Virus record (IMG/VR): IMGVR_UViG_3300021256_000064
Location: 128,001 to 144,402 of that record
Reading direction: 5' to 3' (one strand)
Length of the DNA: 16,402 nucleotides
Source of the DNA: a virus
In this document: in pieces, positions 58-16,402 of the stretch
How positions within the stretch are numbered: the stretch's first letter is position 1
Layout: each line of letters opens with the position of its first letter
The notes under the pieces: generated by a model
Told to the model about the DNA's origin: nothing
The model's database searches: none
The model's input: the letters and a program-made list of their open reading frames with translations, nothing else
Made by a program: the position numbers and the translations under genes

Positions 58-303
58 TTATTCTACCTCATAACCCACATTAACAATAGATTCAGGCTCT
101 TTAATATCATTAAACAATTTTGTTAAAGATAGTTTCCAATATTCATCAACAACTTCACCTTTTGATTTACGTTCCTTATGTTCGCTTGTATATTTACCAA
201 GCACATATGAATTATCATTTTTAGCTTCTTCTATTGCTTTTGCCGCCTCTGCTTCAGTATCCACTCTATATGTTTCAATTGTACTAACTAAATATTTTGA
301 CAT
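58..303 (-). CDS. hypothetical protein (81 aa)
   Basis: Intact ORF with ATG at 303..301. An AAGGAG RBS lies 8 nt upstream on the minus strand (complement of + 306..315). Stop is TAA. No family recognised. Confidence 0.5.
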   Translation of the reverse strand: MSKYLVSTIETYRVDTEAEAAKAIEEAKNDNSYVLGKYTSEHKERKSKGEVVDEYWKLSLTKLFNDIKEPESIVNVGYEVE

Positions 304-315
304 CCTTTTATCTCC

Positions 316-576
316 TTAAACATATTTTATAGTTAATTTATGCTCATTATATTTTAACATTTCTTGCTCTTGAATTTTTTTAACAATACCCTGATTATAA
401 TGTTTAGCTCCTGTCAAGTCAACTTGATAAGTATTGTAAATCTATGATAATTTAAATATGGTAGAAGGAATATCTTCTACTTTAACTTTTCTTGCTTCTA
501 TTTTATTACCATCTTCATAAACATAAAGAATTTGATATAAATCAAAAGGATGAATAATTCCTATAATTTTTCTCAT
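316..576 (-). CDS. hypothetical protein (~86 aa) with one in-frame TAG at 442..444
   Basis: ATG at 576..574 is preceded by AAAGGAG (complement of + 581..587) with a 4-nt spacer. The track ORF 442..648 ends at TAG 442..444. The same frame stays open for another 41 codons to TAA 316..318, which is unusual in DNA this AT-rich. The gene Y / gene X boundary assumes TAG is sense. Confidence 0.4.
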
Positions 577-586
577 ATTTCTCCTT

Positions 587-973
587 TCAACATTGAATAA
601 CCCAATCATCGCAATTAAATAAATAGTAAGCAAATGCTTCTCCACCAATCTAAATCCAGATTTCCCATTTATCTTCTTCTTGTTCTATTGAAAGAATTTT
701 TCCTCTATTTTTTAATATATCAATGAGTTCATTTGCGGCAACCGCAGGTGGGTTACGGTTCAATTTTTCGTATAAATGAAATACTGTAAAATCATATCTT
801 TCTCGACAAAGTAACATAGCATATCCATCAATCTGCCAATTAAACCAATCTTCTAATTCTTTTTTAATTGATTCAATCTTTTTACCAGTTAGCTTGCCTT
901 GTTGTAATATTAATTGTTTATTAAAATCATATAATGTCCCTAATGAAACATCATGTTTATTAGTTTTTTTCAT
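587..973 (-). CDS. hypothetical protein (107 aa if TAG terminates; ~128 aa if TAG 650..652 is read through to TGA 587..589)
   Basis: ATG at 973..971 with AAAGGAG RBS upstream (complement of + 978..984). The ORF ends at TAG 650..652. Read-through adds 20 codons and ends at TGA, which overlaps the RBS of the next gene. Confidence 0.4.
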
Positions 974-995: not shown

Positions 996-1481
996 TTAAA
1001 AATCAAGACCTTGATATAAAACTCTTTGATTTCTACTGCCACGTAATTCAAGTGTAATATCTCTTTCTGCATCAATATAAGGGCCGTCTATTAGAACATC
1101 AATTTGAGACAATATGTGATTAATTTTATCATTATGTTTCTTTTTTAAATCTTCTAAAAGGTAGCCTGTCCAAACAAAAATTTTAATTTGCGGGAAAGCA
1201 GCTCTTACACTTGTAATAATTTTATCAACTTCTTCTAAATTTTCTTCACATAAGGGTTCTCCCCCTAAAACAGAAAAGTTTCTTGTAATATTATTTGCAC
1301 AGATTGCTTTAATAATTTGTCCTCGTATATCAGTGGGTACCTCTTTGCCGCCATTAAAACTCCATGTTTCAGGATTTTGACAACCTGGGCAATGATGTGG
1401 ACAACCTTGTGTCCAAAATGAGACGCAAGTGCCAGTCCCATTTGCGAAGTCATTTTTTATTAAACCTGCATATCTATCCAT
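996..1481 (-). CDS. nrdG: anaerobic ribonucleoside-triphosphate reductase activating protein (radical SAM)
   Basis: 161 aa. N-terminus is GLIKNDFANGTGTCVSFWTQGCPHHCPGCQNPETW, i.e. the NrdG-type CxxxCxxC radical-SAM cluster motif. GAGGAG RBS upstream. Stop is TAA. It sits immediately downstream of nrdD and the FNT gene. Confidence 0.9.
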   Translation of the reverse strand: MDRYAGLIKNDFANGTGTCVSFWTQGCPHHCPGCQNPETWSFNGGKEVPTDIRGQIIKAICANNITRNFSVLGGEPLCEENLEEVDKIITSVRAAFPQIKIFVWTGYLLEDLKKKHNDKINHILSQIDVLIDGPYIDAERDITLELRGSRNQRVLYQGLDF

Positions 1482-1483
1482 TT

Positions 1484-2044
1484 TTATTTACTTAACTCCT
1501 CAATTAATATTGCTCCTAATGAGTTACCAAGAACAATAAGTATAAATTTAAAAATATTTATTAAAGACAAATTGAATAACAGATAAGGAAAATCTGCTAT
1601 ACAATGCTCTGCTCCAATAAGAATAAAAATCATAATCGCAAAAATTGTTAATATAGTTACTTTATTTTTTACAGCAAAATGAATTAACATTCCACAGAAA
1701 GTAGCGTTTACAAATAAAGTTAATGCACTTTTGGTAAATTTAGTTGCACTAGACGCAGATATAATATTAACAAAATCTGGATTTCCTAAAGCATAAAGAC
1801 CTATTGTAGCTGCTATTGCAATACAATTAAATAATAATATTGTAATTAAGATTTTTTTCTATTCTAATGTTGGTTTAGAATAGAAACCAATTTTTCCAGT
1901 AAATAAATTTAATTGCATATTAATTATTGTTAAAAGTCCAAAACTAAATAATAAAGCTCCTAAAGCAGGGATTGAAGATTGAAGGTTAATAATAACCCCC
2001 AATCCAATTAAGATTCCCGCGAGAGCCGATTTTTTAACACACAT
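1484..2044 (-). CDS. formate/nitrite transporter (FNT)-family channel-like membrane protein, 186 aa with one in-frame TAG at 1859..1861
   Basis: Track ORFs 1859..2044 and 1484..1690 are in the same frame. I translated the gap and it contains a single TAG and no other stop. The joined protein is a hydrophobic multi-TM protein. It has the FNT hallmark motifs NLFTG (compare FocA GADLFTS) and GAEHCIADF (compare FocA GFEHSIANMF), plus a C-terminal LGNSLGA. It is shorter than FocA (~285 aa). The start overlaps the nrdD 3' end by 11 nt. Stop is TAA, 2 nt before the nrdG ATG. Confidence 0.55.
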
Positions 2045-4361
2045 AATCTTCCACTGCTCCCATATAACGACGTTGTCCTCTTAGTAAAGATGAATGCTTA
2101 AATCTCATTTCTGTTTCCTGTTGTTTTCCAAGATTAAAGGCTGTTTTATAATCTCCTGTTAAATAGCCTGTAACTCTACGCAATCTCTATATATTTGTTC
2201 CTCCGCACATTGGACATTCATTATTAATTTCTCCAGTGTATCCGCAATTTAAACATAAATCATTAGGAACATTTAATGCGAAATAAGGAATATCTTTATC
2301 CATAGCATAATTAACAATTTGTTCAAGTGCATCAATATTATGTAAGATTCCACTATCTAATTCTACATAAGTAATGCATCCTGCATTTGAATACCCAGTT
2401 AGTTGACTTTCAATATCAATCTTTGTAAATGGGTCAATTTCTTTCCAAACTGGAACGTGAATACTGTTAGTAAAGAACTCTTTATCACTTACATTAGGAA
2501 TTTCTCCATATTTTTCTTTAAATTTTTTCATGGCAGTATAGCATAAATTCTCAGCAGGAGTATAATAAACACCAAAGTTAAGTTTATATTTTTGTTTATA
2601 TTCCGCGCATCTGTCTTTAAATAATTGTTCAATACGTTTGGCAAGTTCCATACCTTCATCTGTTGTATGGTCTTTACCTATAAGTATTTGAAGAGTTTCT
2701 GCTAAGCCAAGTTGACCAAGAGCTAATGTGCCATGTTTAAGCGCGGATCTAATTCCTTCTTCAGGTTTATAACCTAACATGGTATTATTTTCCCACATAA
2801 ACTTTGCAGATTCAGGAGATTGAGAACAGATATATTCAAATCTTTCAATTAACATATCTTTAGCTTCATTAATTTTTTGATCAAGTAATAACATAAAATA
2901 TCCAATAATATTAGGATCATTTATTCCAATATTTTTTGTCCAACGATAATTAGCTTCCATAGCAAGAGTTGGAAGAATAATTGTTACAGGACAAATATTA
3001 CCGCGCCCGTCTTTACGCTGTGGATTTACACCTGGTTCTACATTTATATCTGCTCCATTAGCCGTACGGCATCCCATTGTAGAGAAATATGTAGTTGGGT
3101 CATTTTTGTCATAACCTGCATTTCCGCTCCAATCAACATTAGCGTAATTTGGATATAATCTTTTTGCTGTTGATTCAAGAGCTAATCTGTATAAATCATA
3201 ATTTGGAGTTCCTGGTTCTTTATTAACTCCTTTCATTACTTGGAAGATTCCACAAGGAAAAATTGATGTTTTATGGAATTTACCATTTCCTTTTATACTG
3301 CCTTCAAGTAATGCTTTAATAACCATTCTTCCTTCTGGAAGAGTACAGGTCCCATAGTTAATTGAAGTAAAGGGTAATTGATTGCCACTTCTACTTTGTA
3401 ATGTATTAAGATTATGATACATACCCTCAACCGCTTGTTGAAGCTATTTAACTGTCATATCCATAGCATATTGGTATGCTTTTTTATATTTTTGATATTC
3501 TAAATTATCAATACTAAAATTATCAGAATATTGGTTACGAATATTTATAAATTTTAAATGGCTTCCATTATTTTCTTTATTATAATATAAATCTGATGAT
3601 AATTCTATATATCTTAATCCATCAATATAATGTTTCCAAAAACTTTTTCTTACATAAGGAACCATTGTCCAATCTAAGTGAGTTGCTGATACGCCTCCAA
3701 ATTGTTGTAAACTTTGTAATTGAAATATTACTGCAACAAGTTGAAAAGCTGTATTAATTGAGTTTGCTGGTCTTACGTCTGTTTGACGAGTATTAAATCC
3801 TTTCGCTAATAAATCATCAAAAGGCACTGATAGACAATTATGCATACCAACTGCATATGTATCTAAATCATGAATATAAATTTCATTATTTAAATGATTT
3901 TCTCTAGCCATTTTTGACATACAATTATCAAGAGCGTATTGTTTGGAAATAATTGAATCAAATTCCCCGCGGCGACCACCAAAGGAATGTTCATCAACAT
4001 TAGCATTTTGATTATCAATTTTAGAACCTGCAAGTTTTTCTTGCGCTGCCCGCATCATTTTATTATTCCAATTTCTTTCTCTTGTTCTTTCTTCGCGATA
4101 TTTAATATACGCTTTTGCTACATCTTTTCTTTTTGTAGACATTAATCCATTTTCTACTAAGTCTTGAATTTCTTCAATAGATAATGGATGAGTTTCTTCT
4201 TCACAGTAGCCTTCAATATAATTTGCTATATTCTATGCTTTTGTTTCAGCATATTCAGAAATCTACCCATCTACTGCTTTAAAAGATTTTAAAATTGCAT
4301 TTTTAATTTTTTGTGTATCAAATGGCATTTGTCTACCATCTCTTTTGATTATATAAATCAT
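2034..4361 (-). CDS. nrdD: anaerobic (class III) ribonucleoside-triphosphate reductase, ~775 aa, with four in-frame TAG codons (4263..4265, 4233..4235, 3444..3446, 2187..2189)
   Basis: Track ORFs 3444..4142 and 2187..3422 are in one frame and joined by TAG. Upstream of 4142 the same frame continues through two more TAGs to ATG 4361..4359, with GGAGGA RBS. The N-terminus MIYIIKRDGRQMPFDTQKIKNAILKSFKAV...EEIQDLVENGLMSTKRKDVAKAYIKYREER is an ATP-cone that aligns with E. coli NrdD (VMKRDGCKVPFKSERIKEAILRAAKA...INEIQTAVENQLMS...ARAYIEYRHDR). Downstream of TAG 2187 lie the glycyl-radical motif LRRVTGYL and the NrdD C-terminal tail NLGKQQETEMRFKH. The C-terminal Zn cysteines are CLNCG...CPMCGG. Final stop is TAA 2034..2036. 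Confidence 0.85.
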
Positions 4362-4429: not shown

Positions 4430-4819
4430 TTAATCATTTTTGTCCAATGTATTATTCTCATCTTTAGGGTAATGGAAAGTCTTTTTTCCTTGACGCCATT
4501 CTAAATCACACATTTCTGGAAATTCTTCTTCCATTTGCAGCGCTCCTAATATATTAAATGCAGCAGCTGCTAAATGATCCTCATCATCCCACCCCGCAAT
4601 ATATTTAGCTAAATGTCTTAAAGCTGAATCAAGAAAAGACGACAATGGAATCCCTTTTAAATAATTAAAACGCCCATATTTTTTTGCGCCCTCTTCATAG
4701 AGCTTAGATAAACGTAATAATGCCATCATGGGGAGAGAGAGCATATCTCCCTTCCCTTCATGCATGTCTCTAACCGCTCCTGTGTTGAACTAAGTTCTTT
4801 CTCCAGAATCTTTTATCAT
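4430..4819 (-). CDS. putative phage dNTP pyrophosphohydrolase-like protein (dATP/dGTP diphosphohydrolase N-terminal-domain family), ~129 aa with in-frame TAG at 4790..4792
   Basis: The track ORF starts at an internal ATG (4765). The same frame extends through TAG 4790..4792 to ATG 4819..4817. That ATG is preceded by AAAGGAG (complement of + 4829..4835) with an 11-nt spacer. The resulting N-terminus MIKDSGERT*FNTGAVRDMHEGKG matches what I recall of the conserved N-terminus of this phage family (DSGxRxEFxTGAxRD...GKG). The family call is from memory and should be checked. Later in the protein are YEEGAKKYG and DDEDHLAAAAFNILGA. Stop is TAA. Confidence 0.55.
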
Positions 4820-4824
4820 AAATA

Positions 4825-7800
4825 TTAAATCTCCTTTTCTGTTGAAATTCTTTCATGTTCTAATGTAATATTTTTGTTTGTTACATTTGTAATTCTATAT
4901 AACTGATGTGTTGGTGTTGATTTATAAGTTTTTGCTACAAAAGTATCTTCTCGCCTAAATCCTGTAATTAAAACTTTTGTACCACGAGAGAACCAGCCTT
5001 TTTCTAATACTTTTTTAGTACCATCTGGTTGTTTTTCAGAAATTTGACGATTAAACATAGCATAATATTCTTTTGTAAATTTTACATTTACAACTCCATC
5101 TGTCGTTAAAATAGCGATAGATGCTTTAGTATTATTTTTACTAATAATTGTTCCTGCAATCCTATATAATTTAAAGATTGGAATTTTTCTATCTCCTCTT
5201 TTAAAGAAATAATCAACTACTGGTTCTTCTGATAAAGATGAAAAATCTACAATACCATATTTATATTTATCAATATTAGCTAATTCATGTTCGTGATAAT
5301 AAAAACACAAACTTTCCATTTCCCACGCAGAAATATTTCCAGTTGCATATTTATTCCATGTTTCATTAAATAATAAATTATTATATTGATTTAATACTTC
5401 ATCTTGATTCTCTTTTAACCAGTTTCTTGCTTCATCCATTTCTTTTTGATAGATTTTATCCCATTTAGTTTGAAGAATACAAGTAATTCCATTAATAACA
5501 TCAAGTTCATTTAAATCATAATATTGTGAATAAAAATTTAACGAACCTTCATCAAATATATAATATTTACCAACTTTTTTATTATCTTTAAGAAATTTAT
5601 TAAATACAAATACTTGTTTTTGTTTATTTAATTCTTCTGGTACTAAACCACTTTTTAATAATCCATTAAAATTTTGTAAAGTTAATCGCTTTTTTGGATC
5701 ACAAACTAATGATACATAATATGCCATAATTGCATATCTTGGATTTTCTTTACAAATTTCTGATGCCCAATCATTATCAACCTTATCAAAAGCTCCTGAT
5801 TTAATTAACGAAATCATTTGAGTTTTATTTAGCGGGCATCTATTCATAAAATCAATAATTCCAGTGTATGGGCGGCCGCCAATAATCTTATCAATAACTG
5901 GTCCACCAATTTTATTAACACCTTTTAATCCAAAAAGAATTTCATTATTTTCTTCATCTGGTTCAAAACTGTATCCAGATTTATTAATATCAATTAATGA
6001 TACTTTAATTCCTTTTGAAGTTATATCTCCAATAGCTTTTGCTAATTTAGAATAATCAGTAGATTTATCTTTAGTATTGTCCTCATCATCATCTTCATCA
6101 TCATCTTCAAGAGAAGCACTATTAATGATTAGACATGCAGTATTCCAATAAATTGGATTCCAATTAGTCGCTAAATAAATTGTCTGAACTCCAATAAAAG
6201 AATATGCAAGAGCATGAATGATAGAGAATGAATATCCCATCTGAGGACCAACACCGCATTTCCAAACATACTTACCAAGAGATGGACTAGAAGCTGTATC
6301 TAATATCTTTTGATGTAATTCTGGAATTTTTGCCATTTGTTTTTTACCAACAATTTTACGTGCGGCATTAGCTTCTTTTAATGAAAAATTGCAAATGTTT
6401 TCATCCATCAACATTCTCATTAACTGCTCTTGTGATGGTGGAACTCCATAAGATTGTTTGAAATATGGTTCAATAAATGTTTGTTCTTCTTTTGTTAAAC
6501 CTGCTCGATTCATTTCTTGATACCATAATGAAATATTATTTTTATAACGAATATATTTTTCCATAGGTGTCTCTTCACCCTTTTCAGATGTCATAAGACG
6601 CATTAAGCCATTGGCATCCGCCATTTCAAGAATATTAGTTGGTTTAATTTTCTTTGCGGCTTGTGATCCCACATCTGAATCAAACTGGAAAACATTTAAG
6701 ACACTATTATTTTGAAGAGCTTCCCATATTTTTTTATTCTCTAAAGGCAAAACTTCTGGATGAAGATATTTATTATATACCTCTCTTAAAGAGAGGTCTT
6801 TATCAATTTTATTATTTTCCTGAAGAAGTTTAATTGTTTGAACAATCTTATCCTGAACTTCTGTTACCAAGAAGTCATATTTTGTCATACCGCATGCTTC
6901 ACATTTATGAAGATCCCATTGAGTTATAATTTCACCTTTTGGAGTTTTCATAAAACATCCAAATTCGTATGGATCTTCATCAAAAAGAATAACACCAGAA
7001 GCATGACTAGACCTTTTATTTATCAACCCTTCAATTGCCATCGCAATATCTAATAAACCAGGATATAAATTAATTTCTGAAATAAAAGGCGCGATAGGTT
7101 TTCTATCTTTATCTTTATTCCCATATACAACATCTTTAAGAGGCCATAAAAAACCTCTCTCACTTGGAATTAAAGAAGATAAAAACTGAGCTGTATCAAC
7201 ATCAATCCCGTCTGGAAAATCTTCTGAGCGATAACCGCGGCAAGCTGTTAATACTGCTGATTTAGTTCCTTCTGTACCAAAAGTCGCAATAAGTGTGCAA
7301 CCAAGGTTTTTTCTACTTAAATCATCAATATCTTTATTGAAATTTTGACCTCGTTCTTCTTTTATCTTTTGAAGAATCAATGGACGTTTTGATGGACAAA
7401 GATCTAAGTCTATGTCGCCTAACTCAACACGTTCTTTATTAAGATAACGCCAGAACGGAAGATCCCATTTAATTGGGTCAAGCTGAGTGATGCCTAAAAG
7501 ATAATGATTTAATCCTGAGCAAGATGAACCACGCCCCGCACCAACTGTACTTCCGCACTCCCAAAAAAGATCAACATAATGCTGAAGAGTTATTGGATAA
7601 CTAAACATATTAGTTCCAAGTTTTTCACTAATAGTTTTTTTAATATCTGCTTCTTCTTCTAATCGAGAAAGATATTCTTTTTTATATATATTTTTATTTA
7701 ATAAATTTTGTAAACATTCATTTACCCAATATCTTTCATATTTATCATCAGAAGATAACATATTTCTTAAAGTTGGATAAAATTCTTCAATATTCATATC

Positions 7801-8784
7801 CCTAGATATTTTTGCGTAAGGATAAAAATTTTTACTTTTAGGATAATCTTTTACCTTTACTTTTGGAATTGTCTGTTGATGTCTAATATCATAGTTCTCA
7901 ATCTTATTATAAATTTCATATGAATTATCTACTAATTCATCATAATTTAATTCCGATGGTATAATATTTTCTTTTATGTCATTTTCATCTTGAAGATACG
8001 CATATTCATAAAATGCATCAACTTCACGTTCTCCGCCTTTTGAGTTAAGATATGCTTTATGTACATATCTATCTTCTTTTTTAAGATAATGTGCATCTGA
8101 TCCAAGAACCATTTTACAATCAAAGGCGGCAGCTACAGCTTTAAGACGTCTATTAACAATAACCTGTTCGCTTGATTGACCTGGCGCACACTCGATATAA
8201 AAGTCATCACCAAAAAGACGCTTACACCATAAGATAAAATCTACAATATCATTATGGGCTTCAGCGGCTCCTATTTTGTCATCATGCTTTTCTGCTTTTA
8301 TAAGATTTAAAAGTTGAGAAGAAACTTCTCCACCAAGACAAGCTGTTGTTGCAATTAAACTATTTGGATATTTATTAACAATCTCTTCAAGTTCATCATA
8401 TGTTGTAGGAACTCTTTCAAGACCTCTATCCCAATAACTATTCATCCAAGCTCTTGAAGAAAGCTCTCTTAATGCTCTGAATCCAATTTTATTTTTTGCA
8501 ATCAAAATAAAATGATAATATTTTTGTCCCATCTCTCTATCAGGAGTTAAATATATTTCATTTCCTAATGCAACTTTAAAATCTGGATGCGTCTTTAAAA
8601 TTTCTTGAGCATAGAAGTTTGCTTGCGGAGCACCGCTCAAACATTCATGATCGGTGAGAGCTATCCCACTTAAACCAATTTCTATTGCTCTATCAATAAG
8701 TGCTGGAATTTTATTAATGCAATCTAATAATCTTATGTTTGAAAATTCTGAGTGAGAATGCACCTCAAACCTTTTGACCATCAC
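4825..8784 (-). CDS. dnaE: DNA polymerase III alpha subunit (DnaE-type, PHP domain N-terminus), 1319 aa
   Basis: One uninterrupted ORF. The N-terminal PHP motifs are EVHSHSEFS...IALTDHECLSG. Size is typical for Pol III alpha. An acidic insertion DDDEDDDEDN lies in the C-terminal region. There are no in-frame TAG codons. Stop is TAA. RBS is AAGAGG. Confidence 0.9.
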   Translation of the reverse strand: MMVKRFEVHSHSEFSNIRLLDCINKIPALIDRAIEIGLSGIALTDHECLSGAPQANFYAQEILKTHPDFKVALGNEIYLTPDREMGQKYYHFILIAKNKIGFRALRELSSRAWMNSYWDRGLERVPTTYDELEEIVNKYPNSLIATTACLGGEVSSQLLNLIKAEKHDDKIGAAEAHNDIVDFILWCKRLFGDDFYIECAPGQSSEQVIVNRRLKAVAAAFDCKMVLGSDAHYLKKEDRYVHKAYLNSKGGEREVDAFYEYAYLQDENDIKENIIPSELNYDELVDNSYEIYNKIENYDIRHQQTIPKVKVKDYPKSKNFYPYAKISRDMNIEEFYPTLRNMLSSDDKYERYWVNECLQNLLNKNIYKKEYLSRLEEEADIKKTISEKLGTNMFSYPITLQHYVDLFWECGSTVGAGRGSSCSGLNHYLLGITQLDPIKWDLPFWRYLNKERVELGDIDLDLCPSKRPLILQKIKEERGQNFNKDIDDLSRKNLGCTLIATFGTEGTKSAVLTACRGYRSEDFPDGIDVDTAQFLSSLIPSERGFLWPLKDVVYGNKDKDRKPIAPFISEINLYPGLLDIAMAIEGLINKRSSHASGVILFDEDPYEFGCFMKTPKGEIITQWDLHKCEACGMTKYDFLVTEVQDKIVQTIKLLQENNKIDKDLSLREVYNKYLHPEVLPLENKKIWEALQNNSVLNVFQFDSDVGSQAAKKIKPTNILEMADANGLMRLMTSEKGEETPMEKYIRYKNNISLWYQEMNRAGLTKEEQTFIEPYFKQSYGVPPSQEQLMRMLMDENICNFSLKEANAARKIVGKKQMAKIPELHQKILDTASSPSLGKYVWKCGVGPQMGYSFSIIHALAYSFIGVQTIYLATNWNPIYWNTACLIINSASLEDDDEDDDEDNTKDKSTDYSKLAKAIGDITSKGIKVSLIDINKSGYSFEPDEENNEILFGLKGVNKIGGPVIDKIIGGRPYTGIIDFMNRCPLNKTQMISLIKSGAFDKVDNDWASEICKENPRYAIMAYYVSLVCDPKKRLTLQNFNGLLKSGLVPEELNKQKQVFVFNKFLKDNKKVGKYYIFDEGSLNFYSQYYDLNELDVINGITCILQTKWDKIYQKEMDEARNWLKENQDEVLNQYNNLLFNETWNKYATGNISAWEMESLCFYYHEHELANIDKYKYGIVDFSSLSEEPVVDYFFKRGDRKIPIFKLYRIAGTIISKNNTKASIAILTTDGVVNVKFTKEYYAMFNRQISEKQPDGTKKVLEKGWFSRGTKVLITGFRREDTFVAKTYKSTPTHQLYRITNVTNKNITLEHERISTEKEI
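6082..6110 (-). repeat. short tandem codon repeat (catcatcatctt-like) encoding the acidic DDDEDDDED tract inside dnaE
   Basis: Direct reading of + 6082..6110 (tcatcatcatcttcatcatcatcttc). It is low-complexity and in frame. Confidence 0.5.
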
Positions 8785-8814
8785 TTTACCTCTTTCACAT
8801 TATAATATAATTAT

Positions 8815-8863
8815 ATTATAAAATAAATAAATAAAAAAGTCAAGCGAGTTGCCCCGCTTGACT
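8815..8863 (-). terminator. rho-independent terminator after the homing-endonuclease gene
   Basis: The 9-bp stem AGTCAAGCG / CGCTTGACT spans 8838..8846 and 8855..8863 with an 8-nt loop. On the minus strand it is followed by a T-rich run (+ 8819..8837 is aaaataaataaataaaaaa). Confidence 0.5.
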
Positions 8864-9029
8864 AGTCATATAAAATAAATATTTAAGCTATCCTGTCCAT
8901 TGGAGTACCCTCCATATTATATTGGTTCAATATGTCAACGAGTTACAATTATTCAAACCATTGGACCGTACCTCTCTTTCATAATATTTATTTCTTACAA
9001 TTATATTATACAAAAAATTTTTTTATTTG

Positions 9030-9605
9030 TCAAATTTTATTTAAATCTTTTTGAGTTGGTATTTCTAATGCTTTTTTATGAATTTCATATCTTTGAGTAT
9101 AAGAATTTAATCTAATATATTTATACCATTTCTTTTTAGAATGAATACATTTATATACAGCTTGTTTTGAGATACCTTTTATATTACAAAAATCAGGGAT
9201 AGAAATAAAATCATTATCATTTTCTTGATTTATTTCTATATTATATGGAATAAAATTTTCTTTTGACATTCTTGGAACAAAATCATTTTTTGATATTGTA
9301 TTATTAATATTAAAATCATTTTCTTTATAAAGAATCCATTCTGGTTCTTTTAATAAAATAGTTGATTTAATGTTTTTAAAAGTTTGATTTAATTTAGGAT
9401 GATATTTTGTAATTAAAAAATATTCAAAACTATTCATTTCTAGCTCATTATTACAATTAAAATAATAAATTTCAAAATTTTTTAAATTTTGAAATTTATT
9501 ATCTTTGCTATGTTCATATAGCCGTCTTTTTAAATTATTTGTTTTTCCAATATATATAATTTTATTCTTTTGAACATATTTATAAATATAATATTTATTA
9601 ATCAT
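9030..9605 (-). mobile_element. free-standing GIY-YIG homing endonuclease gene (191 aa)
   Basis: N-terminus YIYKYVQKNKIIYIGKTNNLKRRLYEH is the GIY-YIG motif. The basic C-terminal tail resembles a NUMOD/HTH DNA-binding tail. The gene is intercalated between the Dda-like helicase and dnaE. Stop is TGA. Confidence 0.8.
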
Positions 9606-9635
9606 TTTTCTCTTTAAATTGGATAATTTTAATTA

Positions 9636-10817
9636 TTACCTCACTAATACTAATTTTTCACTAGCTCTCGTACAAGCTGTATATAGCCATCGAGCATGTT
9701 CATTTTTATCAAATGGAAACTTTTCTTCAAGAACAACTACCTTATCCCATTCACTACCTTGGCTTTTATGGGTTGTAATAGCATAGGCATATGTAAATTC
9801 TTTAGGAACAATTTCCCCATATTTAGAACGTAATTTGCCTAATTTATAAGACAATCGCCAATCACAACATTTTTCTCCAGTAATAATCATTTGGCGATCC
9901 ATCTCTGTCATTTGATAAACATCATTAGTTTCTGGCACAACTAAATCACCAACTAAAACATCAAATTTTCTTATATCACTTTGTACAAACCTGGGAATTT
10001 CTCTCCAAGTGCGAAAACTATTTTGAAGAATACCAATAGTCCCATTAATTAAAGCATCTCCATTTAAGCTTGAATCATCCCAGTAATTGCGGAGACATAT
10101 AATCTTATCTCCATCAACAGGTTCTCCAGTTCTTCCCTGTAGTGCGCGCATTTGATTATTAATGGCTCGTCGCTTTGCATTTGTTGCAGTTAGAATTTGG
10201 TCTCCCCATTGTAATACTCCAGTATTCAAATCTGAGTAAGGAATAATTTTTACTTCATTACCATTAAAATAATCAATTGACTCTTGATTTCTGATTTTCA
10301 TAGTAAGCTGAATAATTTCAGAATCTTCTTCCTGTCTCATAATTTCATCAAGAAAAATATGAGGATTATCTAATAGATGATTATCTTCATCTTTATCAAT
10401 AGGCGGCAACTGGAAAGGGTCTCCTAAACAAATAACATATACTCTATGCTTAAATAATAACTCTATTAAAGATTTGGGAGCCATAGAAACTTCATCAACT
10501 ACAACTACATCATAATCAATAAGTGGTTTTGGCTTTCTAAAGAAACCACCCGCTGGCCGCGGTATATGTTCATATAGTAACCGATGAAGAGTTGCTACAT
10601 TTTTATTTCCTTTTTTCTTTAATACCTCTGCAGCCTTACCAGTAAAAGCACAATAACATACCCTATCTTCTTCAACATTAAGAGCGTCGATGATATAACG
10701 CACTAGGGTCGACTTTCCTGTTCCTGCATATCCCGCTATTGTGGTAAATTTATATCCAGCTCGATGTCGCGCCACAGCTGTTTTTAATCCTTCCTCTTGT
10801 TTTTTTGTTAATATCAT
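9636..10817 (-). CDS. Dda/RecD-like superfamily 1 ATP-dependent DNA helicase (393 aa)
   Basis: Walker A is GYAGTGKST and Walker B is VVVVDEVSM. C-terminal motifs ITTHKSQGSEWDKVVV and YTACTRA match the AAA_30/UvrD_C_2 (RecD/Dda) architecture. The start overlaps the upstream stop in TAATG. Stop is TAA. Confidence 0.8.
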   Translation of the reverse strand: MILTKKQEEGLKTAVARHRAGYKFTTIAGYAGTGKSTLVRYIIDALNVEEDRVCYCAFTGKAAEVLKKKGNKNVATLHRLLYEHIPRPAGGFFRKPKPLIDYDVVVVDEVSMAPKSLIELLFKHRVYVICLGDPFQLPPIDKDEDNHLLDNPHIFLDEIMRQEEDSEIIQLTMKIRNQESIDYFNGNEVKIIPYSDLNTGVLQWGDQILTATNAKRRAINNQMRALQGRTGEPVDGDKIICLRNYWDDSSLNGDALINGTIGILQNSFRTWREIPRFVQSDIRKFDVLVGDLVVPETNDVYQMTEMDRQMIITGEKCCDWRLSYKLGKLRSKYGEIVPKEFTYAYAITTHKSQGSEWDKVVVLEEKFPFDKNEHARWLYTACTRASEKLVLVR

Positions 10818-11068
10818 TATTCATGCTCTCCAATTACTTCATCTAAAATTTGAACAAAACGCATTATGTCTCTATTCGCTCTTTGCCGATACACAGTCCA
10901 TTCAGTATGATTAGAGACATTGCTCTGTCTATCTCTTAGATATTCATATTCTGCCATTTGTTCTCTGGCTCGAATATATCTATATATTAAAGAATCATAT
11001 TGATAGCCTTTTAATTTCTTTTCATCTATTGTATTAATTTTTAAACTTTCATCTGACATATCTAACAC
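10817..11068 (-). CDS. hypothetical protein (83 aa)
   Basis: Intact ORF. It is coupled to the helicase gene through a TAATG overlap. No family recognised. Confidence 0.5.
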   Translation of the reverse strand: MLDMSDESLKINTIDEKKLKGYQYDSLIYRYIRAREQMAEYEYLRDRQSNVSNHTEWTVYRQRANRDIMRFVQILDEVIGEHE

Positions 11069-11083
11069 CTCTATTATTTTTCT

Positions 11084-11539
11084 TTAATTTTCTTCTAATT
11101 TTTTTCCCATTCTTAATTTCATTAAACGACCTACAAATTCCGCTTGAGTTAGAACTGTTTTTGAAGGATCATTCTTTCCTATTGAGTGTGATAATATTGC
11201 TGGGCGGCTAGCCTCTAAAGCTTTTCTAAATCCTTCATTTTGATATAGTGCGTTATAGGCTTTATTTAAAAGAATTTGATATTCCTGACTATCACGTTTA
11301 TATTCTTTACCTTGCCAATATAAAGTTTGTGTTTTCCACCATTTTTTATCTTTTCCTTTATACTTTGCTTTTTTCCCAACTAAAGAACATACATATTTTT
11401 GCATATCAGTATTTTTAAACTTTAAAGATTGCAAAAAGCCTTCCATTGAGTTACAAGGTATCTCATCTATAATAAAAGGATGCGGTGCAAAATTACTTAA
11501 TGAGGCTGCAGGATAACCTGAACCACTTCCAATATCCAT
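11084..11539 (-). CDS. NADAR (YbiA/DUF1768)-like domain protein (151 aa)
   Basis: SLSNFAPHPFIIDEIPCNSMEGFLQSLKF aligns with E. coli YbiA FSNFAAWPIKVDGKTWPTSEHYFQAQKF. The motif ILSHSIGKND aligns with YbiA LVEHTEND. AGGAG RBS and a strong upstream promoter are present. Stop is TAA. Confidence 0.55.
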   Translation of the reverse strand: MDIGSGSGYPAASLSNFAPHPFIIDEIPCNSMEGFLQSLKFKNTDMQKYVCSLVGKKAKYKGKDKKWWKTQTLYWQGKEYKRDSQEYQILLNKAYNALYQNEGFRKALEASRPAILSHSIGKNDPSKTVLTQAEFVGRLMKLRMGKKLEEN

Positions 11540-11569
11540 ATTTATTCTCCTAACATTTTATTTATATAT

Positions 11570-11598
11570 ATTATATCAAATTTTTATAAAAAAATCAA
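11570..11598 (-). promoter_or_regulatory. sigma70-like promoter for the NADAR gene (TTGATT-N17-TATAAT with TGn extended -10)
   Basis: On the minus strand, -35 TTGATT is the complement of + 11593..11598. Then a 17-nt spacer. -10 TATAAT is the complement of + 11570..11575, and a TG lies one nt upstream of it. Confidence 0.45.
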
Positions 11599-11604
11599 AA
11601 AGAA

Positions 11605-11637
11605 AAAATGCGATTGAAAAAATTCCAAACGCATTTT
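11605..11637 (-). terminator. possible weak rho-independent terminator downstream of recJ-like gene
   Basis: Stem AAAATGCG (11605..11612) pairs with CGCATTTT (11630..11637). The loop is 17 nt and may pair internally. On the minus strand a T-run follows. The large loop makes this weak. Confidence 0.3.
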
Positions 11638-11673
11638 TCGTTTCCTGTGGACGACTGCCTGCGCGCCGAGCCG

Positions 11674-13455
11674 TTAAAAGAAGTATTTAGCAGAATCTAC
11701 AATTTCAAAATCCTACATAATAAGCTGTGGGTAGACGCAACCATTCCACTAATTTTTATTACATTTACAAATAGCGTTTACCTCTAAATATCCTGTTGTT
11801 GTAAATTTGGTAATTTCTTCTTCAGTTCCATTAAATTTAATAATAGATAATCCGTTAGGTAAATTAAATTTTAAAGTATTACTTTTCATAACTTTAAAAT
11901 TAGAATCAGTAACTTTAAAATTAATATTTACATAAGCTCTGTCTATATCTTGACCCCAATAATCATTCATATCTGCAATATCTAAAATGCGCTGATTGTT
12001 GTTTTCTTTTTCATTAAAATTATAATCAATTCTATAAATAGGTTCAACAGAGACATCTTCAAGAAGCTAATCAATCTTATAAAGAAAATCACTTATATGA
12101 TCTGCTTCTATACCAAGTCCCGCCGCATTGTCATGTCCCTATACATATAAAACTCCTGGACATTGTTCAAGTACTTCTTTAAAACTATTAATTCCAGTTT
12201 TTGTATATCCACGCATAGAGCCTTCATAAGTTGCTTTATCATTTCTATTAGTTTTAGTTAATAAACAACAAGGTCTTTGATATTTTGCCATAAATTTATT
12301 TGCAATTAAACCACGAATTTCAGAATCAATTTTATTAGGTTCTAATAAGAATAAAAGAATTTTATGGTCAAGCATATGATTAGTTTCAATCATTTTTTCT
12401 AACATAGCTAATCCTGCATCTTCTGCTCTTGTTTGTCTATTTTTAACATTCGTAACTGTTCTAATTGCCTGTAGAATTAATTTTTCTTTCTAACCTAATT
12501 TATGTCCACGCTTGTTTGAAATAACTTCTGTAAAAGCCTTATGTTTTAACATAGAATTAAAAAGTAAATTTTTCTATTCTATTGTTCCACTTCGAGTTAC
12601 AGCATTAATAAAAGGTACAATAAAAAATGCGGCGCCCATAGATGTACATCTCATATTAGGATCCGATGAAACATAATCTGCTTTTGATAAAGGAAATGAG
12701 TTTTTATCAATCATGTAGTCGATAAAAGGATTTTTAATATTCTATTTTTTGAACCCTTTAGTAATTAAATATCTAGTTTCAAATGAACGTAAAGACATCA
12801 TATCCCCACAGTTCCCTAGTGCAACCAAATCTAAAAAACCATCTGCTAATTTTATATCTAATTGATTATCAATATAACGACAAAATTGCCAAACAACCCC
12901 AACACCAGATAATTCCTTATTAGGATAATCTGATAATTGATTATTAATAATAATAGCATTTTCACTAATATGATCTGCTAAGTGATGATCTAAAACTAAT
13001 ACTTGAATATTTTTGTCTGTTAATATCTTATGATAACTATAATCATTACTACTTGAATCTGGGCAAATCACAAGCATTGGATTACGAGCTAATACAAAAT
13101 CAATACAATCACTTAATCCATGTTGTTTACTATCGTGCATATACCAATCTAAATGATTAACGACCCAAGTGGGAAATATCTTATATAAATAATTAATAAG
13201 AAGAGCTGCAGATGTATAACCATCACAATCACAGTCTACAATTACTAAAGCATCAGCATTTTCTCTTACAGTATTAATAATAGCCATTAAACCATTTTTG
13301 AGATTTGTTTCTCCTAAAGACAACGGGGAATTAATATCCTAATCAGATAGATTTACATAATGTAAAATTTCATCTTCCGCAATTCCTCTATTGTATAATA
13401 TTTGCTGTATTGTTGAAAAATTCTAATTTGGTTTATTTATTAACTAATATCTCAT
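11674..13455 (-). CDS. recJ: RecJ-like single-stranded-DNA exonuclease (DHH + DHHA1), ~593 aa, with ten in-frame TAG codons
   Basis: Track ORFs 12742..13323, 12139..12405 and 11749..11970 are all in one frame. The gaps between them, translated by hand, contain only TAG stops. These are at 13444, 13423, 13339, 12742, 12574, 12490, 12139, 12067, 11749 and 11713. The joined protein shows the RecJ N-terminus ILYNRGI, DHH motif I VIVDCDCDGYTSAALL, DHH motif III VLVLDHHLADH, FINAVTR (E. coli RecJ LNAAGR), and the DHHA1 motif *GHDNAAGLG (E. coli FGGHAMAAGL). ATG 13455..13453 is preceded by AGAGGAG. The final stop is TAA 11674..11676. The last ~25 codons after TAG 11749 are less certain. Confidence 0.75.
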
Positions 13456-13487
13456 TTTAATCTCCTCTAATATAATATTCCATTAAA

Positions 13488-13496
13488 ATTATAACA
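13488..13496 (-). promoter_or_regulatory. extended -10 (TGnTATAAT) promoter element upstream of the recJ-like gene
   Basis: Minus-strand TGTTATAAT is the complement of + 13488..13496. It lies just 3' of the terminator hairpin and ~33 nt upstream of the recJ ATG. No clear -35. Confidence 0.35.
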
Positions 13497-13531
13497 AAAA
13501 AAAGAAGAATTGTCAAATCAATTCTTCCTTT
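13491..13531 (-). terminator. rho-independent terminator after the membrane-protein gene
   Basis: The 9-bp stem GAAGAATTG (13504..13512) pairs with CAATTCTTC (13519..13527), with a 6-nt loop. On the minus strand a run of at least 8 T follows (+ 13491..13503 is A-rich). Confidence 0.45.
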
Positions 13532-13538
13532 TTATAAT

Positions 13539-13922
13539 TTAATATAATAAAATTATCCAAGTTATAATAATTTGAATAAAATGAATTATCTGATCTTGAA
13601 TCAAATTAATTTTTAATTGATTAGCTTTTAAATCATCTACATACATATGAATTATTAAGTTTATTATAAATAGTGGAATAGACCATAAAAAGGTTTTTAT
13701 ATAATAAAAGCTATAAATAAAAATTGGCAACTGAATCATAAAAGACCAACTAAAGCTATGACAAAATAACGCCATTAAATAATCATTTTTATATAATTGA
13801 TTAGGTGCATTTTTATTCCACCAAGATTTTTGTTTACCTGAAGCTAACCAGCCTTGTAAATAATAATCATCAATAATATGACAAAAAATCATTGTTATTA
13901 AAATAAAAATTTTTATATTCAT
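13539..13922 (-). CDS. hypothetical integral membrane protein (127 aa)
   Basis: Strongly hydrophobic with multiple predicted TM segments. The start overlaps the primase stop. Stop is TAA. Confidence 0.5.
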   Translation of the reverse strand: MNIKIFILITMIFCHIIDDYYLQGWLASGKQKSWWNKNAPNQLYKNDYLMALFCHSFSWSFMIQLPIFIYSFYYIKTFLWSIPLFIINLIIHMYVDDLKANQLKINLIQDQIIHFIQIIITWIILLY

Positions 13923-15016
13923 TATTCTATTCTTATCCTTTCATTAAACAATTTTATAAAAATATCTTTACCACAATCAATAGGGGAATCTTTATAACCT
14001 AATAAATTATCTTTATCAAACATATAACTAATATTTACATAGCTTCCATATTTATTATATAATGTTTGTAATTTAATAACCCATTTTTCCCATTCTTTAT
14101 CTCTAGTTTTTTGAAACTGCTTATCAAAAGCGATTATAATTTCTTTTACTCCTAAAGACATCAATAATTTAACTTGATAATTAATTAAATTACTGCCGCA
14201 ACATGCTACACTAATATCTGAGTCTTTTCCAAAATATGACGCATATTTAAGACAACTTTTTTCACCTTCAAAAACAATTGCTTTTTGAAATATAGAAATA
14301 GTCTTTTTACTATTGTTCAAATTATATAAATTAAAACCAAGAGGATGATTATAAAGTTTTCCTTTTATATAGGCAGGACGATATTTTCCATATATCTCAT
14401 TTTCTTTTATAAGAGTTCTTTCTCGAATTCCAATTAATCTGTTATCTATGTCATAATGTGGAATAACAATTCCTTCGCTTATTGGATTATAACATATACC
14501 TCTTGATTCCATTATATCAGATGTTATATCTTCTTTTTCCCAAGGTAAGATACGGGGATGAGGTAAATATTTTAATATTTTATCATCATAAGTTTTTAAT
14601 TCTATAATTTGCGGTTGAGATTTTTCTTTATTTCTTTTAAAATTATTAATAATTTTCCAATCTTCATTAGCGTCTTGATTATCTTCAAAATCAAATATTT
14701 CAGCTGTACATCCAAAATATCTAGCCACAAAAGATATTGCCTTAGAAAGAGAAAAGCCTTCAATTCCTGCGGTTTTATTTACTCTTAAAACTAGATCATA
14801 TATATCAAATGACGCATCTCCACATCCTGTATAACAATGAAATAAATGAGTATTTTCATAATAATAAAGCTTATGGCTATCGCCGCCATGACAGATAGTG
14901 CGGGCGGTGAATAATCCATTACCCATAATTGGTTCACCGCCTAATTCGCTAACTAAATCAAATACTTCTTCTATTGATAAATTTTCTTTTAAAGTGTCTT
15001 TGTCATATTTGTACAT
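13922..15016 (-). CDS. dnaG: DnaG-type DNA primase (CHC2 zinc finger + Toprim), 364 aa
   Basis: Zinc-binding motif CHGGDSHKLYYYENTHLFHCYTGCG. Toprim motif VFEGEKSCLKY with a downstream acidic cluster. It follows the DnaB-like helicase. Stop is TAA. Confidence 0.85.
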   Translation of the reverse strand: MYKYDKDTLKENLSIEEVFDLVSELGGEPIMGNGLFTARTICHGGDSHKLYYYENTHLFHCYTGCGDASFDIYDLVLRVNKTAGIEGFSLSKAISFVARYFGCTAEIFDFEDNQDANEDWKIINNFKRNKEKSQPQIIELKTYDDKILKYLPHPRILPWEKEDITSDIMESRGICYNPISEGIVIPHYDIDNRLIGIRERTLIKENEIYGKYRPAYIKGKLYNHPLGFNLYNLNNSKKTISIFQKAIVFEGEKSCLKYASYFGKDSDISVACCGSNLINYQVKLLMSLGVKEIIIAFDKQFQKTRDKEWEKWVIKLQTLYNKYGSYVNISYMFDKDNLLGYKDSPIDCGKDIFIKLFNERIRIE

Positions 15017-15165
15017 TTTTTATCTCGATATTGTTTTCTAAATATTTTTAATCTTTTACAACTATTACATTTAGTATGATTATATTTACAATCCCAACAG
15101 TTATCATTATCCCACCAAAACCATCTTGGCGGTTGAGGTCTTGGTTTTCTAAATTTTTCTTTCAT
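14989..15165 (-). CDS. possible small Cys-rich (CxxC...CxxC zinc-ribbon) protein, 58 aa, not in the ORF track
   Basis: ATG 15165..15163 overlaps the dnaB-like stop in TAATG, the same coupling seen elsewhere in the window. It encodes MKEKFRKPRPQPPRWFWWDNDNCWDCKYNHTKCNSCKRLK... and ends at TAA 14989..14991. It overlaps the primase start by ~28 nt in another frame. Confidence 0.35.
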   Translation of the reverse strand: MKEKFRKPRPQPPRWFWWDNDNCWDCKYNHTKCNSCKRLKIFRKQYRDKKCTNMTKTL

Positions 15166-16388
15166 TAAAATGCGCTCGCTTCTATTTTTGGTGTTACTGT
15201 GATTTTTAAATCTTCTATATCTATTAATTCATAGTTATAATTAGTTACAAATAATGGATTAATACGACAAGTTCCTCGTTCTGATTTACACCAGAGTAAT
15301 ATATCTTTATATCTAGCGCGTCTATTTTTATAAACAGACATTTTTATATCAGGCATTTCGATACCCATTGAATTAACAATATTTTTTAAAGATTCTCTAT
15401 CATCTTGGCTCGTTTGTAACATAATCATACCACAATCTATTTTATCAGCAATAGCTTTAGCGCCACGAAGAAGATTTTGATCGTACTGCTGAGCTGTTAC
15501 ATAGTCAGAATTTAACTGCGTTGCAGACATTACAAATACGCCATATTGATTACATAAATCTTTAATTCTTACACTTATCATAAAAAGAATGTTATCTTCT
15601 CTTAATCCTTTAACTCCTGCTTTTGAACTAATTTCACTAAGAATTTTCATACTTGAATGAATATAATCCATAAATACATATCTTACTCCATGATTACGGA
15701 TATTACTTTTAATTGTATTTTCAATATCTTGTAATGAAAAGTCTGGTAATTTTTTAATATATAATGGGCTTTTTGCAAGAATCTCCGCGGCTTCACTTAC
15801 TCGCTCCCATTCATCTTCAACATACGTATTTTCAAGAATATGAGATTCGTTTACATTAGCCAAAAATGCCATCATCATAGTTTGGATCTCATCTTCTTCT
15901 TGTTCTGTTGTGATAAATACAGTTGGTTCACGAGTTCCATTATCTTCCCATTGTTTAGTCTCAAGGTTATAAAGTTTATTGCAAGCAATAAAACAAGCAT
16001 CTGCAATCATGGAACGAGTCTTTCCGACGCCAGTAGCGGCAGACCGCAAATAGAATTTTTTTAATCTAGCCCCGCGATGAATTGTATTAACTAATCTTCC
16101 ATATAAAGGATAACCAACTTCAGGATTTTTTCTTAGTCTTTCAAGTAAAGCTAATGCACCATCACCAGCTTGAATAATTTCATCTTCTGAGTTATCAACA
16201 TATTTAGATTTTATCTCTTCTATCTTATCATTAATAAGATTAGCAATTTCATTAATTGGAGTATTATCAAACCAAGTTTCTTGGGCTTCTTTCTTTTTTA
16301 CATCTAAAATATTATCCGGATCATATAACCAAGATAAATTCATTCCAACATTTTTATTATACATCCGTAAAAGGGTCATTTTCTTCAT
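15165..16388 (-). CDS. dnaB: DnaB-family replicative DNA helicase (RecA-like C-terminal domain), at least 407 aa
   Basis: Walker A is SAATGVGKTRS. Other DnaB-like motifs are DYIHSS and VMSATQLNSD. The frame upstream of ATG 16388 stays open to the window edge, so the N-terminus may lie outside the window. Stop is TAA. Confidence 0.8.
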   Translation of the reverse strand: MKKMTLLRMYNKNVGMNLSWLYDPDNILDVKKKEAQETWFDNTPINEIANLINDKIEEIKSKYVDNSEDEIIQAGDGALALLERLRKNPEVGYPLYGRLVNTIHRGARLKKFYLRSAATGVGKTRSMIADACFIACNKLYNLETKQWEDNGTREPTVFITTEQEEDEIQTMMMAFLANVNESHILENTYVEDEWERVSEAAEILAKSPLYIKKLPDFSLQDIENTIKSNIRNHGVRYVFMDYIHSSMKILSEISSKAGVKGLREDNILFMISVRIKDLCNQYGVFVMSATQLNSDYVTAQQYDQNLLRGAKAIADKIDCGMIMLQTSQDDRESLKNIVNSMGIEMPDIKMSVYKNRRARYKDILLWCKSERGTCRINPLFVTNYNYELIDIEDLKITVTPKIEASAF

Positions 16389-16402
16389 ACGATTATAATA
16401 AT

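Follow-up and report, generated by a model that had tools for sequence, protein, structure and literature searches.

The 16,402-nt stretch of viral DNA analyzed here (positions 128,001 to 144,402 of IMG/VR record IMGVR_UViG_3300021256_000064; hereafter the window) encodes replication and nucleotide-metabolism proteins and uses the amber codon TAG as a sense codon, densely in a gene for a RecJ-like exonuclease and nowhere in the genes of the core replisome. We consider it probable that the window belongs to an SPbeta-like lineage of Bacillota phages with an amber-to-glutamate code, attained through a C36→A change in tRNA-Glu(CUC), that the loaded RecJ gene and the clean replisome are maintained across different recodings, and that a delay or throttling of the exonuclease has been selected for.

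The window has a GC content of ~29%, and all its long open reading frames (ORFs) lie on the minus strand, to which all window gene and promoter coordinates below refer. Reading TAG as sense, with TAA and TGA as the only stops, fuses ORF fragments into full genes and leaves both the RecJ-like gene and nrdD without any in-frame TAA or TGA; none of the 16 window genes terminates in TAG (14 end in TAA and two in TGA). The counts of a preliminary description of this DNA are borne out: the RecJ-like gene (11674..13455; 593 codons) holds 10 TAG codons and nrdD (2034..4361; 775 codons) holds four, with none in the genes for DnaE, DnaB, primase, Dda, NrdG, the gp30.3-family protein and the GIY-YIG protein. 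That description had placed nrdD between positions 4825 and 16388, a range outside which the gene lies.

To quantify this skew, TAG was counted relative to Glu-type codons (TAG, GAA and GAG), and heterogeneity among the 16 genes was evaluated with a G-test by multinomial simulation. The skew is genuine and greatly exceeds what chance would give, whether expressed per codon (p=2e-5), per Gln codons (4e-5) or per Glu codons (1e-5). The core replisome (DnaE, DnaB, primase and Dda) contains 50% of the Glu-type codons and 0 of the 18 TAG codons (P=3.5e-6), while RecJ contains 10% of the Glu-type codons and 10 of the 18 TAG codons (P=2.6e-6). TAG accounts for 26% of the Glu-type codons of RecJ and for 7% of those of nrdD in the window. 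The GC3 comparison proposed in the preliminary description yielded a uniform picture, since neither GC nor GC at third codon positions (GC3) splits TAG-bearing from TAG-free genes (GC 0.28 and GC3 0.16 for RecJ; 0.30 and 0.15 for DnaE).

The product of the RecJ-like gene is a predicted single-stranded DNA (ssDNA) exonuclease, 34% identical over its full length to its SPbeta orthologue YorK, annotated as an ssDNA-specific exonuclease. It matches the Pfam DHH (1.2e-12), DHHA1 (3.9e-7) and RecJ_OB (2.4e-4, below the gathering score) families, and its translation shows the motifs DCDCDG, LDHH and GHDNAAG. The first bases of its TAG codons are 13446, 13425, 13341, 12744, 12576, 12492, 12141, 12069, 11751 and 11715, and two of the ten fall within the first 11 codons. 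The TAG-free replisome genes comprise a DnaE-type DNA polymerase III alpha subunit (SPbeta YorL-like; 4825..8784; 1319 codons; Pfam PHP, DNA_pol3_alpha, finger and HHH_6), 41% identical to Enterococcus and SPbeta phage polymerases and with 0 TAG against 101 Glu codons; a Dda/RecD-like superfamily 1 helicase (9636..10817; Pfam AAA_30, AAA_19 and UvrD_C_2); a YorJ-like primase (13922..15016; 364 codons), assigned from a weak Pfam Toprim match and a position equivalent to that of SPbeta yorJ; and a YorI-like DnaB replicative helicase (15165..16402; Pfam DnaB_C 7.5e-16). The last is cut by the window end, so that its C-terminal ~410 codons (407 or more) are present, with 0 TAG against 32 Glu codons; the protein has 514 amino acids (aa) in a near-identical contig.

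To investigate what TAG encodes, we used a likelihood test combining the residues aligned in standard-code relatives with empirical substitution profiles, the late-region version of the test drawing on 28 standard-code reference sequences. In an alignment of 36 RecJ sequences, TGA columns correspond to Trp and TAG columns mostly to strongly conserved Glu. The likelihood test favors Glu over Gln by 8.9 natural-log (ln) units for the proxy of the window genome and by 17.4 ln units across all columns. Late-region loci on the contigs of relatives L002, L050 and L040 gave +54.6, +53.8 and +28 ln units for Glu, and locus L089 (54.6 for Glu) has 22 TAG sites in columns where Glu makes up 80% or more, compared with zero in Gln columns. 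Applied to sister lineages, the same test favored Gln by 42-72 ln units (13-20 Gln columns), and in the control lineages L108, L132 and L136 by 47-72 ln units. Since it yields Gln in sister lineages, the test discriminates between the two amino acids, and the clade holds two amber codes. Individual sites agree: the TAG of the dUTPase gene sits in the DYRGE motif (DYRGx), and the four TAG sites of NrdD correspond to E, E, D and D in NrdD proteins of known structure. TAG at conserved Gln, the signature of genetic code 15, is replaced by TAG at conserved Glu in the lineage of the window, for which the common assumption that TAG means Gln fails. By alignment, TAG is most likely decoded as glutamate in this lineage. 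A full-text literature search found no report of amber-to-glutamate decoding in phages.

Suppressor tRNAs with a CUA anticodon were identified in relatives L476, L478 and L481. Both the acceptor stem and the D arm of the L478/L481 suppressor are identical to those of a Clostridia tRNA-Glu(CUC), from which the suppressor departs in the anticodon loop by C36→A (CTCTCAA to CTCTAAA). The suppressors of all three relatives share a GUC/GAC D stem, a long D loop, a 4-nt variable loop and a G1-C72 pair, which make them of tRNA-Glu rather than tRNA-Gln type, and a 17-mer of the D arm belongs to tRNA-Glu in 7/7 bacterial tRNAs checked. Judged from these features, the suppressor of the close relative is a descendant of tRNA-Glu(CUC). 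The suppressor also carries U11-A24 and lacks base 47, which we take to be identity elements for glutamyl-tRNA synthetase (GluRS), and its G1-C72 pair and longer D loop are presumably anti-determinants for GatCAB. By published identity rules it should therefore remain a Glu-tRNA. The tRNA similarity also hints at the identity of the host, with Oscillospiraceae or Saccharofermentans-like bacteria predicted on the strength of the tRNA-Glu acceptor.

The tRNA cluster of L476 that includes tRNA(CUA) adjoins a TAG-free sigma-70-family gene, and homologues of this gene on contigs of 99-139 kb precede an 18-tRNA cluster in which Glu(UUC), Glu(CUC), tRNA(CUA), Met and Thr tRNAs follow one another in this order. 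The gene encodes a full four-region sigma-70-family factor directly upstream of the suppressor cluster (L476, 1813-2688; L478 and L481, 10001-10915), and the phage sigma factor is a candidate link between a transcriptional and a translational switch. TGA-coded relatives carry a tRNA(UCA) in a cluster upstream of GyrB.

Comparison with relatives, defined as 64 viral contigs from a DnaE-anchored scan at 46-89% identity, reveals the same pattern under different codes. In-frame stop typing of orthologues showed that relatives using the standard code are interleaved, in terms of DnaE identity, with TAG-recoded and TGA-recoded ones, and a single clade (L001-L064, L070-L148) holds the standard code together with three reassignments, TGA→Trp, TAG→Gln and TAG→Glu, making four code states in all. 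This interleaving implies several independent reassignments. Orthologues of RecJ, DnaE, DnaB, primase and Dda occur in dozens of relatives at matching divergence, with RecJ present in all of them. In the TAG→Glu lineage, RecJ carries 69 TAG among 536 Glu-type codons (13%), distributed over 32 distinct alignment columns, against 0/1982 in DnaE (22 relatives), 0/226 in DnaB, 0/246 in primase and 0/418 in Dda (17 relatives); the share in NrdD is 2%. In the TAG→Gln lineage, RecJ has nine TAG versus 53 Gln codons (9/62) and DnaE has 0/119, and in the TGA→Trp lineage TGA makes up 33/76 Trp-type codons of RecJ (43%) and 11/248 of DnaE (4%), NrdG being high too. The RecJ TAG positions vary between sublineages in the 36-sequence alignment and are mostly lineage-specific, so that the enrichment has arisen repeatedly. 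A RecJ homologue with six in-frame stops, adjoining an intact NrdD, is also found in the TAG-recoded human-gut phage phAss-1.

Upstream of RecJ lies a terminator-like hairpin of 15 pairs with a T-run (13488..13533), the 3' arm of which contains a sigma-70 promoter, TTGACA-17-TGnTATAAT, with a 12/12 match to consensus and 33 nt upstream of the start codon. This hairpin-promoter arrangement is kept in L003, L047, L053, L039, L032 and L042, including relatives with a RecJ only 48% identical. Two sigma-70 consensus promoters precede DnaE (8815..9033), a perfect one at 9033..9005 and TTGACT-17-TATAAT at 8843..8815, the latter embedded in a terminator hairpin (8863..8838). The extended locus contains six consensus promoters, all on the coding strand and each at the start of an operon, compared with a chance expectation of 0.09, and the promoter type of RecJ also precedes DnaE, YorF and YorH. 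RecJ and the replisome genes hence appear to fall in one promoter class. Given that the RecJ and DnaE promoters are alike, the difference between RecJ and the replisome resides in the coding sequence, which speaks for translational control more than for late transcription of RecJ.

The gene order YorF, YorG (AAA_24), YorH, YorI (DnaB), YorJ (primase), YorK (RecJ-like) and YorL (DnaE) is syntenic with SPbeta, and past the dUTPase gene lie opposite-strand tail genes encoding YomO, the YomU tube protein, YomV, YomW and GDSL-lipase proteins. Tail genes adjoining the window contain 2-14 TAG codons each, except for the tube gene, which has none. In S240 and the relative G431, the late strand has 0.22-0.25 of its Glu-type codons as TAG and the early strand 0.05-0.07, and in 36 late-region loci of relatives, reading TAG as sense raises the fraction covered by ORFs of 100 codons or more from 0.4-0.7 to ~0.95. 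Within G431, the tail tube gene has no TAG and that for a 364-aa putative capsid protein has one, against 15 in the terminase gene and eight in that for a putative portal protein; tube genes, 325-335 codons long, lack TAG altogether, and tail accessory genes have as many as 13 in 259 codons. The GyrA, GyrB, ligase and a sigma-factor gene of the relatives are TAG-free as well.

Recoded stop codons are known to concentrate in structural and lysis genes of phages that encode suppressor tRNAs and leave replication largely in standard code, an arrangement for which a translational, post-transcriptional timing role has been proposed (Borges et al., bioRxiv 10.1101/2021.08.26.457843). The TAG-rich tail genes indicate that the genome of the window follows this late-gene rule, with recoded codons enriched late and depleted in early and replication genes, and RecJ as the exception. 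The preliminary description had presented the partition as replacing late-gene enrichment, and the TAG-free replisome as a departure from described phages. The adjoining tail genes, using TAG for 22-25% of Glu-type codons much as RecJ does (26%), contradict the former, and the latter had already been described by Borges et al. TAG density does track gene class through its late-strand enrichment, with RecJ departing from it inside the replication module. The suggestion of staged or conditional translation survives in part: the skew is kept in relatives and fits RecJ and, more weakly, NrdD and the dNTPase.

We lean towards a two-class account of these observations, which takes the window to be the module for replication and nucleotide metabolism of an SPbeta-like Bacillota phage of ~125 kb. 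A phage tRNA(CUA) derived from tRNA-Glu(CUC) would decode TAG as glutamate, and genes translated after the switch (tail, portal, terminase and RecJ/YorK) would use TAG for about a quarter of their Glu-type codons. TAG would have been purged from the genes read by the unmodified apparatus of the naive host (DnaE, DnaB, primase and Dda, together with the relatives' GyrA, GyrB, ligase and sigma genes) and also from the most abundant late proteins, namely the tail tube and the putative capsid protein. Transcribed from the same host sigma-70 promoter type, the RecJ mRNA would appear together with the replisome mRNAs, and its 10 TAG codons would end translation until the suppressor accumulated, with the effect of delaying or throttling the exonuclease. 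NrdD, the MazZ-like protein and others, with 2-8% TAG, would be weakly recoded intermediates. What the sequences show is a TAG distribution that is conserved and has been reached convergently, together with the promoter architecture, the alignment-based identity of TAG and the descent of a relative's suppressor from tRNA-Glu; from these we infer the timing, the actual gating and a reason for RecJ in particular.

Several observations weigh against this account. The partition is imperfect, as NrdG, the gp30.3-family protein and the GIY-YIG protein are TAG-free though not replisome parts; the clean split between core replisome and accessory genes drawn in the preliminary description accordingly breaks down, NrdD being weakly recoded and RecJ the true outlier. 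TGA-recoded relatives carry some TGA codons in DnaB, primase and Dda, and a few of their DnaE genes have up to six. The early and late classes were assigned solely on the basis of strand, promoter type and gene function. Neither the window nor the 31 kb read of its ~125 kb source contig yielded a tRNA with ARAGORN, and the case for tRNA-Glu descent draws on the L478/L481 orthologues and on published identity elements. The link of L476 to the Glu lineage runs solely through DNA identity (94.7% to L423, which in turn is 90% identical to G431), and the overall identity of its suppressor to tRNA-Glu(CUC), 64%, scarcely exceeds that to tRNA-Lys, 62%, and is not decisive.

A further difficulty is that the TAG share of RecJ equals that of the late genes, as passive drift in any gene dispensable early in infection would give. 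Under such passive relaxation, TAG would drift into genes dispensable before the suppressor appears, purifying selection would bar it from early-essential genes alone, and the RecJ TAG codons would have no regulatory role. This predicts the same sequence pattern as gating and constitutes a serious rival, albeit one that we deem somewhat unlikely. The RecJ share (26% here, 13% across relatives) is equal to or lower than that of late genes (22-25%), and the RecJ TAG positions turn over across 32 columns as under mutation-selection balance, unlike fixed regulatory sites. Passive relaxation sits less well with the conserved strong sigma-70 promoter that RecJ possesses in its own right, like DnaE, which would make for an apparently early yet untranslatable transcript, and with the enrichment of RecJ in four independent recodings. 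If TAG were instead poorly decoded, through competition with release factor 1 (RF1), it might be avoided according to protein amount and not timing. The late tail tube (0 TAG) and putative capsid (1) genes do avoid it, and the terminase (15), portal (8) and accessory (up to 13) genes do not; the low-copy DnaE, primase and Dda, however, have no TAG against ~2900 Glu codons in relatives, so that abundance alone is insufficient and an expression-level bias is an improbable explanation of the whole pattern.

The preliminary description had raised a different evolutionary origin of the TAG-bearing genes, which might be old residents among TAG-free recent imports, or the reverse. Atypical composition of the GIY-YIG (GC 17%) and MazZ-like (GC 37%) genes, and a YonG_N gene with four TAG codons that is present or absent between near-identical strains, would fit such a history. 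DnaB, primase, RecJ and DnaE nevertheless retain the SPbeta yorI-J-K-L order, and their orthologues are found in dozens of relatives at matching divergence. We regard this origin as very improbable overall, and for RecJ a foreign origin is contradicted by its synteny with yorK, its orthologues in all relatives and a GC and GC3 like those of its neighbors. The same description had allowed that the TAG-bearing genes are non-functional, and under the standard code they are indeed fragmented. RecJ and NrdD, however, run for 593 and 775 codons without TAA, TGA or frameshift and retain strong Pfam domains, TAG falls at conserved Glu columns, no gene stops with TAG and ORF coverage rises as reported above; the pseudogene reading is dismissed on the intact frames, the domains and the Glu-column TAG codons, and hardly any credence is left to it.

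The NrdD protein matches Pfam NRDD (1e-145), ATP-cone and Gly_radical, and the TAG codons of this anaerobic ribonucleotide reductase (RNR) gene start at 4265, 4235, 3446 and 2189; its activase NrdG, a radical SAM protein, is encoded at 996..1481 (Pfam Fer4_12 and Radical_SAM). Between nrdD and nrdG, overlapping nrdD by 11 nt, sits a gene for a formate/nitrite-transporter (FNT)-like membrane protein (1484..2044; Pfam Form_Nir_trans; one TAG at 1861), which is unusual company for a class III RNR of a phage, an enzyme with formate as its reductant. The window also has a MazZ-like dATP/dGTP diphosphohydrolase gene (4430..4819; Pfam dGTP_diPhyd_N; one TAG at 4792), with a GC content of 37% that makes it a composition outlier. 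The other outlier is the TAG-free GIY-YIG homing-endonuclease-like gene (9030..9605; Pfam GIY-YIG; GC 17%), which has a TGA stop. The T4 gp30.3-family (NADAR-like) protein is encoded at 11084..11539 (Pfam Phage_30_3 5e-55), and a 127-aa hydrophobic membrane protein, TM127, is predicted at 13539..13922 from an ORF with neither TAG nor Glu codons. ORFs for hypothetical proteins comprise hyp83 (83 aa; 10817..11068; no TAG), hyp128 (587..973; TAG at 652), hyp86 (316..576; TAG at 444) and hyp81 (58..303; no TAG), and orthologues of hyp128, hyp86 and hyp81 were found in relatives.

For the greater part of its length the window matches ENA scaffold_240 (ERZ28612970, SHIW14-1_SAMN02144230-S004; 124,598 bp) at 99.85-100% identity. 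This contig was reached with hyp81 and Dda as queries of an assembly index, in which the DnaB fragment and the primase gave no hit. Its DnaB end is only ~90% identical to that scaffold, versus 99.85% elsewhere, and scaffold_240 has an additional gene between DnaB and primase for a 149-aa YonG_N-domain protein with four TAG codons (L069, 5336-5798), which is absent from the window (~15017-15164). The divergent DnaB segment and the extra gene suggest a recombination mosaic. INPHARED contained no close DNA relative of the window, and a scan with a 959-aa GDSL tail protein retrieved no relatives. DnaE and NrdD are uninterrupted in the window, where a free-standing GIY-YIG gene lies just upstream of DnaE. 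In many relatives, inserts of ~1 kb, visible as split and frame-shifted high-scoring segment pairs, occur in DnaE of L038, L046, L047, L050 and L053 and in NrdD of L002, L013 and L053, and the DnaE of L023 is continuous at 1723 aa; group I introns carrying homing endonucleases, together with an intein, probably account for these inserts.

Among the tRNA searches, ARAGORN detected no tRNA in 228 loci of relatives spanning from 10 kb before YorF to 10 kb past YomW, and Rfam gave no match at the gathering threshold in the window or its neighbors. A walk over ~88 kb of the 130 kb of G431 encountered no CUA suppressor, nor did the adjacent ~10 kb in the near relative L423. The G431 walk revealed only a tRNA-Leu(CAA) and two aberrant tRNA-like genes beside it (L309, 5313-5914; also in L229, L230 and L279). 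The first, of 98 nt, has its anticodon arm replaced by a 42-nt segment bearing an 8-nt loop; the second, of 68 nt, combines a Gln-like U1-A72 acceptor with an anticodon loop of only 3 nt. Both were rejected as the suppressor, since neither is able to read UAG. In G431, a region of ~9 kb (L309, 10400-19300) has few ORFs of at least 70 codons, GC-rich islands reaching 51% over a ~30% background and no Rfam matches.

Other relatives carry suppressors of 96-97 nt with a long variable arm and a UCA or CUA anticodon (L359, 176-271; L368, 499-594; L383, 8371-8467; L382, ~4784), which ARAGORN labels SeC and Pyl; the long CUA suppressor has the anticodon arm CTGACTCTAAATCAG in common with the Glu-type suppressor. 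L376 encodes a tRNA-Gln-type CUA suppressor and L383 the 97-nt long-arm CUA suppressor, and both have at most seven informative sites in the amino-acid test. Their GyrB (~10001-11900) is not open with TAG readthrough only, and coverage rises with TAG or TGA as sense; L376 and L383 may carry both recoded stops. Within a tRNA cluster of a 135 kb phage contig, ARAGORN also predicts a transfer-messenger RNA-like gene (L366, 1504-1912) with the tag peptide ANKVKSLFSFNRVSFA.

For annotation, applying table 15 to all TAG-recoded phages would place Gln at hundreds of conserved Glu sites, including the DYRGE motif of dUTPase. It appears that TAG→Glu, TAG→Gln and TGA→Trp were attained separately by phages that are close relatives of one another, and the Glu route needs a single anticodon change in tRNA-Glu(CUC). 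If this is true, stop-codon capture would be limited by the tRNAs that host synthetases still charge, and not to Gln and Trp as proposed, and the tolerance of GluRS for anticodon position 36 becomes a directly testable question. An exonuclease gene combining a strong host-type promoter with 10 amber codons likewise offers a natural test of recoding as a translational timer.

Among described systems, stop-codon-recoded gut and rumen phages, and above all the Firmicutes-infecting 'Agate' clade of ~127 kb phages, resemble the phage of the window and its relatives in size class, mixed code states, late recoding and suppressor tRNAs; the likeness to Agate is one of genome size, of genes of Firmicutes type and of the mixture of code states. 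Borges et al. (bioRxiv 10.1101/2021.08.26.457843) observed no reassignments other than TAG→Gln and TGA→Trp, in contrast with the apparent TAG→Glu code and the tRNA-Glu-derived suppressor, known from relatives, in the sublineage of the window; the recurrent recoded RecJ exception within the replication module is not described there either. Code 15 phages (crAss-like, Lak and phAss-1) similarly use amber as sense in a standard-code host, with a tRNA(CUA) and late recoding, but they insert Gln with a tRNA-Gln-like suppressor, whereas here TAG falls in Glu columns and the suppressor of the relatives has a tRNA-Glu acceptor, D arm and 4-nt variable loop, such that table 15 would put Gln at conserved Glu sites of this lineage. 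In nuclear codes 30 (peritrich ciliates) and 31 (Blastocrithidia), TAA and TAG encode Glu through cognate tRNA-Glu species with changed anticodons. Those codes are cellular, genome-wide and affect both codons, whereas here only TAG is reassigned, in a virus and in a subset of genes, with TAA as the main stop. The closest counterpart in gene content is the yorF-yorL region of SPbeta, which has the same gene order, with YomO, YomU, YomV and YomW nearby; SPbeta uses the standard code, at 34-41% identity, and the phage of the window adds Dda, gp30.3, GIY-YIG, MazZ-like, class III RNR and FNT-like genes to this shared framework.

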